From an uncultured Polyangiaceae bacterium (lineage in GTDB: Bacteria > Myxococcota_A > Polyangia > Palsa-1104): 59,912 nucleotides of DNA. This document shows, in pieces, positions 14,314 to 14,327 of the stretch. The stretch spans positions 1 to 59,912 of the forward strand of contig CAZPEY010000002.1 in the NCBI GenBank assembly GCA_964585665.1. Reading direction: 5' to 3'. Positions within the stretch are counted from its first letter, which is position 1, and every line of letters starts with the position of its first letter. The notes beneath the pieces were generated by a model, which saw only the letters and a list, made by a program, of their open reading frames with translations, ran no database searches and was not told the origin of the DNA. The translations under genes and the position numbers were made by a program.

Positions 14314-14327
14314 TTGATCGCGCTCAA
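14314..14327. promoter_or_regulatory. FNR/CRP-type box TTGATCGCGCTCAA
   Basis: Same half-sites as the 7597-7610 box (TTGATCG..CTCAA). It lies in the 65-bp divergent region between the acyltransferase-FNR operon and the radical SAM gene. Its centre is 41.5 nt upstream of the radical SAM ATG (14362), which has no SD. Confidence 0.5.

Follow-up and report, generated by a model that had tools for sequence, protein, structure and literature searches.

The DNA analysed here, termed the window, is 59,912 nt long and has a GC content of ~69%, so that AT-rich palindromes are rare within it. Genes were picked by a GC3-guided choice of open reading frames combined with Pfam and NCBIfam scans, and their starts agree with gene calls made independently on contigs that match the window exactly or almost exactly, with the exception of a B12-binding radical-SAM (rSAM) gene that the automatic calls begin at ATG 14287. 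This gene is placed here at 14362–15714 on the plus strand and encodes 450 residues; its top NCBIfam match is TIGR04072 (lipid-biosynthesis B12/rSAM protein), at 257 bits and thus under the curated cutoff of 360. Divergent from it, on the minus strand, is an operon that starts with the gene for an LpxL/HtrB/PIM-type acyltransferase (293 residues, 13397–14278) and continues with the gene for an FNR-like regulator (230 residues, 12708–13400), whose GTG start overlaps the acyltransferase stop (GTGA). Beyond a 156-nt gap, and also on the minus strand, lie genes for a DAHP synthase (292 residues, 11673–12551; Shine–Dalgarno sequence GGAGGAG; 361 bits against a cutoff of 335; supported by gene calls) and for a peptidase-U32-family protein (454 residues, 10312–11676), the start of the latter overlapping the DAHP synthase stop by 4 nt. 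A gene for a hemerythrin (HHE domain) begins at an ATG that has no Shine–Dalgarno sequence (7644–8210, plus strand), and its product shares iron-ligand residues with the hemerythrins that adjoin relatives of the regulator. The gene divergent from that for the hemerythrin (5401–7527, minus strand) specifies a protein of 708 residues, which has a cyclic-nucleotide-binding domain at its N-terminus and a phosphoribulokinase/uridine-kinase domain at its C-terminus. The window also encodes an oxygen-dependent coproporphyrinogen oxidase, HemF (42851–43729), and the lack of an FNR-type box upstream of this gene fits a host that lives aerobically as well.

The 83-nt divergent spacer between the acyltransferase and rSAM genes (14279–14361) contains a 14-bp palindrome, TTGATCGCGCTCAA, at 14314–14327 (box 2; centre 14320.5; no strand assigned). 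It has a single mismatch to the FNR inverted repeat TTGAT-N4-ATCAA and matches 9 of the 10 FNR half-site positions. A preliminary description of this DNA had noted the likeness of box 2 to a second palindrome, TTGATCGATCTCAA at 7597–7610 (box 1; no strand assigned). Indeed, the two are equal at 12 of 14 positions, with both differences in the central N4. The proposal that two such boxes are hardly a chance occurrence is upheld by the counts. The pattern TTGAT-N4-CTCAA is matched twice in the window against 0.02 expected, and two matches were reached in 0 of 100 dinucleotide shuffles; the FNR consensus with at most one mismatch is matched twice in 59.9 kb against 0.11 expected, both matches being boxes 1 and 2; and TTGA-N6-TCAA occurs exactly twice, again as boxes 1 and 2, against 0.13 expected. 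Box 2 is therefore real and not a chance palindrome. The centre of box 2 does lie 41.5 nt before the rSAM ATG at 14362, as described, and the equal distance claimed for box 1 does not stand, the centre of that box being 40.5 nt from the hemerythrin ATG at 7644. Nor is the right half-site CTCAA special, although it had been called unusual: at position 10, related boxes have C, G or A, and CTCAA was dropped as a diagnostic half-site for this reason. The core that is invariant across related boxes is cTTGA-N6-TCAAg. An example of a mutated version of box 2 is CCGATCGCGCTCGG.

When two mismatches to the FNR consensus are allowed, 19 matches are found against 3.8 expected. Most of them are intragenic, for example at 1008–1096 and 11144–11349, and the excess is probably an effect of codon composition (GAT/ATC-rich codon runs), not a sign of real sites. 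Just one half-site is present in the matches at 33440, 17813 and 29328, and of the 19 matches the palindrome at 12612–12625 alone passed tests of geometry and conservation.

For comparison with relatives, a metagenome scan yielded 80 loci, of which 14 hold close rSAM orthologues; a scan of genome contigs with the single rSAM protein returned one distant, irrelevant match only. Homologues of the rSAM protein bear names that assign the host to Polyangia/Myxococcota. The informative lineages are few (L082, L086, L087, L088/L089 and L091), and loci L094–L099, being identical to the window in both of the regulatory spacers compared, carry no comparative information.

The start of the rSAM gene decides whether box 2 is coding. 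The rSAM orthologues have MRxLLVSANRE as their first residues and are about 440–460 residues long, and ATG 14362 has no Shine–Dalgarno sequence ahead of it. The automatic calls give a protein of 475 residues from ATG 14287, in a frame that is open upstream to 14134. In comparison with the 97%-identical relative L082, 4 of the 25 residues of this extension (14287–14361) are changed, against 3% in the protein; its substitutions are distributed over the three codon positions as 4/0/3, against 16/6/88 in the gene proper, so that upstream of 14362 there is no bias to third codon positions. Moreover, the box centre in L087 is 43.5 nt from the rSAM ATG, against 41.5 nt in the window, which places the box there in another reading frame. 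The start at 14287 was dropped on these grounds, and the evidence from both relatives indicates that box 2 is a DNA element of the 83-nt spacer and not coding sequence. In the rSAM orthologues of other Polyangia (L002, L008, L009, L010 and L012), the strong hexamer TAGGAT is found 6–9 nt before an ATG that has no Shine–Dalgarno sequence; this supports leaderless expression, which seems to be the general rule for the rSAM gene family.

Class II CRP/FNR promoters have the regulator site at −41.5 and the −10 element at −12 to −7, and in E. coli the FNR promoters of this class carry TTGAT-N4-ATCAA centred at −41.5. On the rSAM side of the spacer, box 2 is followed by 22 nt, by the −10-like hexamer TACCCG (14350–14355, plus strand) and, after a further 6 nt, by the ATG. 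The distance from the centre of box 2 to the first base of the hexamer, 29.5 nt, is exactly that required by a −41.5 site with a −10 element at −12 to −7. The position of the hexamer would put the start of transcription at or next to the A of ATG 14362, from which we infer a leaderless mRNA. Box 2 and the hexamer would represent class II (−41.5) geometry on a predicted leaderless transcript.

This layout is not confined to box 2. All boxes and the gaps downstream of them were tabulated by script, and a 22-nt gap followed by a hexamer that starts with TA was found at eight promoters, or seven if the near-identical L082 is set aside. These are box 2 (TACCCG) and the DAHP synthase box 3 (TAGCGT) in the window, the unchanged TACCCG of L082, the rSAM (TAGCGA) and DAHP synthase (TACCTT) genes of L087, the regulator gene of L086 (TATCGT, with TGG ahead), L088 (TACCCG) and L089 (TACCCA). 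Box 1, at the hemerythrin gene, has a gap of 21 nt before the hexamer TAGCCT (7632–7637, plus strand; 6 nt before the ATG), and the hemerythrin gene of L091 has a gap of 22 nt before CAGACT. The layout of box 2 thus recurs at seven further sites, L082 aside: boxes 1 and 3, and five in relatives that carry the regulator. The composite pattern TTG-N7-TCAA, 21 or 22 nt, TA is matched three times in the window against 0.027 expected, with a maximum of one match in 300 shuffles; the pattern was framed after the first two boxes, and the third match is independent of them. All three matches are intergenic and each points toward the next gene. Box 1 is also ~80 nt from the start of the divergent gene at 5401–7527.

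The third match, box 3 (TTGCGGGGCATCAA; 12612–12625, minus strand), falls within the 156 nt that separate the regulator gene from the DAHP synthase gene, and its hexamer is 22 nt further on at 12584–12589 (minus strand). Both half-sites are kept in L082, where two bases of the N4 are changed. In L087 the box reads TTGCGCCTCGTCAA, and both the 22-nt gap and the distance of 67.5 nt to the ATG are as in the window.

The spacer was also considered in the opposite direction. On the minus strand, 22 nt separate box 2 from the weak −10-like hexamer CACATT (14286–14291), and the acyltransferase ATG at 14278 comes after a further 6 nt; this ATG is 42.5 nt from the centre of the box. Box 2 starts 36 nt from this ATG and 18 nt from an upstream GTG at 14296, in keeping with the range of 18–36 nt given in the preliminary description. 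The GTG is the less likely start, and ATG 14278 is supported by 293-residue gene calls and by an acyltransferase orthologue of 293 residues in L087. CACATT is unchanged in L082, where the neighbouring 6-nt spacer carries 2 substitutions; in L087 the hexamer at this distance is CAAGCT. Neither −10 assignment is strong, in that CACATT is without the T at −12 and TACCCG without the usual T at −7, and scans of the two promoter regions for consensus sigma-70 promoters and for terminators found nothing. Bidirectional activation by box 2, and hence positive autoregulation, is plausible from this arrangement and would be placed a little below an even chance. The suggestion that autoregulation is possible can accordingly be retained, as relatives L086, L088 and L089 have a class II box before the regulator gene.

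Conservation of the spacer was followed through the relatives. L082 has 93% DNA identity to the window, and its box 2 is identical. All 9 substitutions in the 83-nt spacer lie outside the box: the box, the two hexamers and the 6 nt that lead up to the rSAM ATG have none, and the remaining 51 nt have 9, a clustering with a post hoc P of about 0.009 to 0.03. L087, in which identity is 59–64% for the regulator, 76% for the acyltransferase and 62% for the rSAM protein, has the same divergent layout as the window. Within its spacer, only cTTGATC..G.TCAAGT and the −10 area can be aligned, and the counterpart of box 2 is TTGATCTGGGTCAA. In L086 (regulator identity 75–79%), a box in class II position lies ahead of the regulator's own, apparently leaderless, ATG. 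L082, L086 and L087 each contain exactly one palindrome of this kind, in the relevant spacer.

In L088, L089 and L090 (regulator identity 38–41%), the regulator gene is divergent from an operon for a hemerythrin and an Mrp/NUBPL-type Fe–S carrier, and the common spacer contains [A/G]TGAC-N4-GTCAT, 22 nt and TACCC[G/A], pointing at the regulator. L091 (36–37%) has TTGATCCCGGTCAA 42.5 nt before the hemerythrin ATG and a perfect box, TTGATCTGGATCAA (5926–5939), ahead of the regulator gene, with 0.00 expected for boxes before these two genes. A second box before the L091 regulator gene, TTGATGCGTATCAT (5981–5994), contains the likely −10 element TATCAT, 13.5 nt before the ATG, a position that suggests negative autoregulation in that lineage. 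L092 has a box and no convincing −10 element. The box of L088 and L089 has drifted to [A/G]TGAC-N4-GTCAT though the ETLSR helix of the regulator is unchanged, and L088 has a second copy, TGACGGCGGTCA, that overlaps the hemerythrin start codon. Relatives of the regulator consistently adjoin a hemerythrin gene (L088, 4030–4744; L089, 6815–7531; L090, 68–784; L091, 4471–4999), and an Mrp/NUBPL-type Fe–S carrier gene is additionally present in L088 and L089.

No box lies within 160 nt upstream of the 14 close rSAM orthologues, which come from other Polyangia, have no linked regulator and have different neighbours. The box was therefore dropped as a property of the rSAM family. In orthologous intergenic regions it is kept where the regulator is present (L082, L087) and absent where the regulator is unlinked; it follows the regulator and not the target gene family, which is the behaviour expected of a lineage-specific regulon. 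Upstream of the rSAM ATG of L002, L010 and L012, at about 120–150 nt, there is another palindrome of 13–15 nt (GTTGCGAAATGCAAC, GTTGCGAAACGCAAC), which may be the site of another regulator.

As to the regulator itself, the preliminary description had assigned an FNR-class protein to the divergent operon, and the product matches both PF00027 (cNMP-binding-like domain) and PF13545 (CRP-type helix–turn–helix). Its best solved relatives, aligned over the full length, are P. aeruginosa DNR (E = 2e-8) and Aliivibrio FNR (E = 2e-6). The sequence ETLSR aligns column by column with ETISR of FNR and ETFSR of DNR, and E192, T193, S195 and R196 are invariant across the regulator family; a cognate regulator with an E--SR recognition helix is thus encoded beside the box. 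The protein also has the motif C5-x2-C8-x10-C19 and a central C96. In the family alignment, which includes E. coli FNR, residues C20, C23 and C122 of FNR are matched by C5, C8 and C96, and the central cysteine lies under the C122 equivalent in the alignment with solved relatives as well. C5, C8, C19 and C96 are invariant in the family, the invariance of C19 having been checked among its myxobacterial members. An exhaustive profile search returned 115 clusters with E ≤ 1e-30. Of its 150 best matches, 96 combine CxxC-x(4-14)-C at the N-terminus with E[TS]xSR, and most of the remainder look N-terminally truncated. All four cluster-ligand cysteines, three N-terminal and the C122 equivalent, are hence present, with a spacing of Cx2Cx10C as against Cx2Cx5C in FNR; because of this difference, Fe–S cluster binding and oxygen sensing by the regulator are extrapolations from the cysteine pattern. 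The curated Fnr, FnrL and FtrB models score the protein at 26–34 bits, far below their cutoffs of 211–300, which marks it as a member of a separate FNR-like subfamily and not as an Fnr orthologue. Domain scans of the window found no further CRP-type helix–turn–helix protein.

From these data, box 2 is likely to be the operator of the adjacent FNR-like regulator, encoded 0.9 kb away, acting in class II fashion at a leaderless rSAM promoter and probably at the regulator's own operon. At low oxygen, a regulator carrying an N-terminal iron–sulfur cluster would dimerise and bind the box through its ETLSR helix. The dimer would then sit at about −41.5 from a start at the A of the rSAM ATG, stand in for a −35 element and recruit RNA polymerase to the weak −10 element TACCCG, as in class II activation. 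The product would be a leaderless mRNA for the B12/radical-SAM enzyme; radical-SAM enzymes are oxygen-labile. In the other direction the same dimer, 42.5 nt from the acyltransferase ATG and its weak CACATT, would probably activate the acyltransferase–regulator operon, giving positive autoregulation. Boxes 1 and 3, of like design, would drive the hemerythrin gene and the DAHP-synthase/U32 operon, respectively, and so make up a compact low-oxygen regulon.

Other uses of the same DNA have to be weighed against this model. Box 2 might be a real site of the adjacent regulator that serves as a repressor operator for the divergent operon, as at E. coli fnr, or that serves repression only. The box, 36 nt ahead of the acyltransferase ATG, could lie across a promoter that starts upstream of the box, the minus-strand −10 element CACATT is weak, and in L091 the box that overlaps the TATCAT of the regulator gene occupies a repressing position. 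The promoter scan, however, shows no alternative promoter upstream of box 2, and CACATT is kept in L082 while the adjoining spacer has changed. Furthermore, the regulator boxes of L086, L088 and L089 are at activating distance, 22 nt from TATCGT, TACCCG and TACCCA, and repression as the role of box 2 is considered unlikely.

Less likely again is that box 2 is bound by another CRP/FNR paralogue encoded outside the window, or that the regulator senses NO, redox state or a ligand of the cNMP pocket. Paralogues elsewhere in the genome could use the site, and myxobacterial genomes encode many cNMP-domain proteins, one of them at 5401–7527; in addition, the best solved match of the regulator is the NO-responsive DNR, and no curated Fnr model cutoff is reached. 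Yet the four conserved cysteines align with the cluster ligands of FNR, and DNR-type proteins are without them. Across loci, the box and this regulator family go together, and the targets (radical SAM, hemerythrin, U32) suit an oxygen signal. Finally, the palindrome might be due to chance or be a coding feature inside an N-terminal rSAM extension from ATG 14287. In its favour are the automatic calls of 475 residues, the frame open to 14134 and a GC3 of 92% in the extension. The starts of the orthologues at MRxLLVSANRE, the substitutions in L082, the different frame of the box in L087 and a chance expectation of 0.02–0.13 leave this explanation very improbable.

Activation by the adjacent regulator can be extended, tentatively, to a wider proposal: that an uncharacterised FNR-like subfamily runs a leaderless class II low-oxygen regulon in Polyangia, with one operator firing two back-to-back transcripts. 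This subfamily would be defined by CxxC-x(7-13)-C, a central cysteine and an ET[LF]SR helix, and would comprise at least about 100 sequence clusters. Its targets would be the B12/radical-SAM and acyltransferase genes (anoxic lipid remodelling), the hemerythrin gene and the DAHP-synthase/U32 hydroxylation module. Polyangia are usually regarded as strict aerobes. If confirmed, the proposal would provide a testable oxygen regulon for uncultured or poorly studied members of the group, with a sensor, an operator consensus (cTTGA-N6-TCAAg, 22 nt, TA-started hexamer) and three target units. Supposedly aerobic soil bacteria would then prepare for anoxia by means of oxygen-labile radical-SAM lipid chemistry, an oxygen-binding hemerythrin and an oxygen-independent hydroxylase with its own precursor supply, and the locus would show cleanly, in a natural setting, a single FNR-type dimer acting on two divergent promoters that are both leaderless. 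As a mechanism this is textbook; what is new, as a member or variant of it, is the subfamily of the regulator, the set of targets and the layout, which is predicted to be leaderless and probably bidirectional. The gain is thus in physiology and annotation, not in principle.

Comparison with characterised systems brings out likenesses and differences. As with E. coli FNR, there is a 14-bp inverted repeat with 9 of 10 half-site positions matched, an E--SR helix, three N-terminal cysteines plus a central one, and a box-to-(−10) distance of 29.5 nt that fits a −41.5 site. Unlike E. coli FNR, with which it shares about 20% identity, the regulator has Cx2Cx10C spacing and scores below the curated Fnr cutoffs; the target mRNAs appear leaderless and the host is a 70% GC myxobacterium of the Polyangia. 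A single CRP site activates two divergent promoters according to the account of El-Robh and Busby (2002) cited in PMC3105977. Box 2 is similar in offering one dimer site about 41.5–42.5 nt from two back-to-back putative start points, and differs in having an FNR-type regulator and transcripts that are both predicted to be leaderless. In M. xanthus the hypoxia regulon that has been described is run by NmpRSTU instead (PMC11841059). Searches of the literature on TIGR04072, on myxobacterial FNR proteins that have been characterised and on leaderless transcription in Myxococcus gave nothing usable.

Two of the predicted targets have precedents. In P. aeruginosa, Anr controls the single-domain hemerythrin Mhr (10.1101/802934). 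An FNR-family regulator is likewise linked to a single-domain hemerythrin in L088, L089 and L091 and at box 1 of the window, in another regulator subfamily and another phylum and with regulation that is here a prediction. DAHP synthase, encoded here next to the U32 gene, opens the pathway to prephenate. E. coli Fnr controls ubiUV, genes of a U32-family O2-independent hydroxylase (PMC10470549), for which prephenate is the oxygen donor (PMC10990095); TrhP, also a U32 enzyme, depends on prephenate too (PMC6599085). As in the Fnr–ubiUV case, an FNR-type box lies ahead of an operon with a peptidase-U32-family gene, coupled here to that for DAHP synthase, which suggests that box 3 precedes a module for prephenate-dependent hydroxylation that needs no oxygen and has a precursor supply of its own. 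A difference is that the U32 protein of the window matches the N-terminal part of the Pfam model only, and it received no assignment as UbiU, UbiV, TrhP or RlhA. Between the box 3 hexamer and the Shine–Dalgarno sequence of the DAHP synthase gene there is, in addition, an inverted repeat, CGTCGTCG-N10-CGACGACG (12561–12586, minus strand), which is unchanged in L082 and for the most part preserved in L087, and whose 5′ arm is partly upstream of the putative transcription start.
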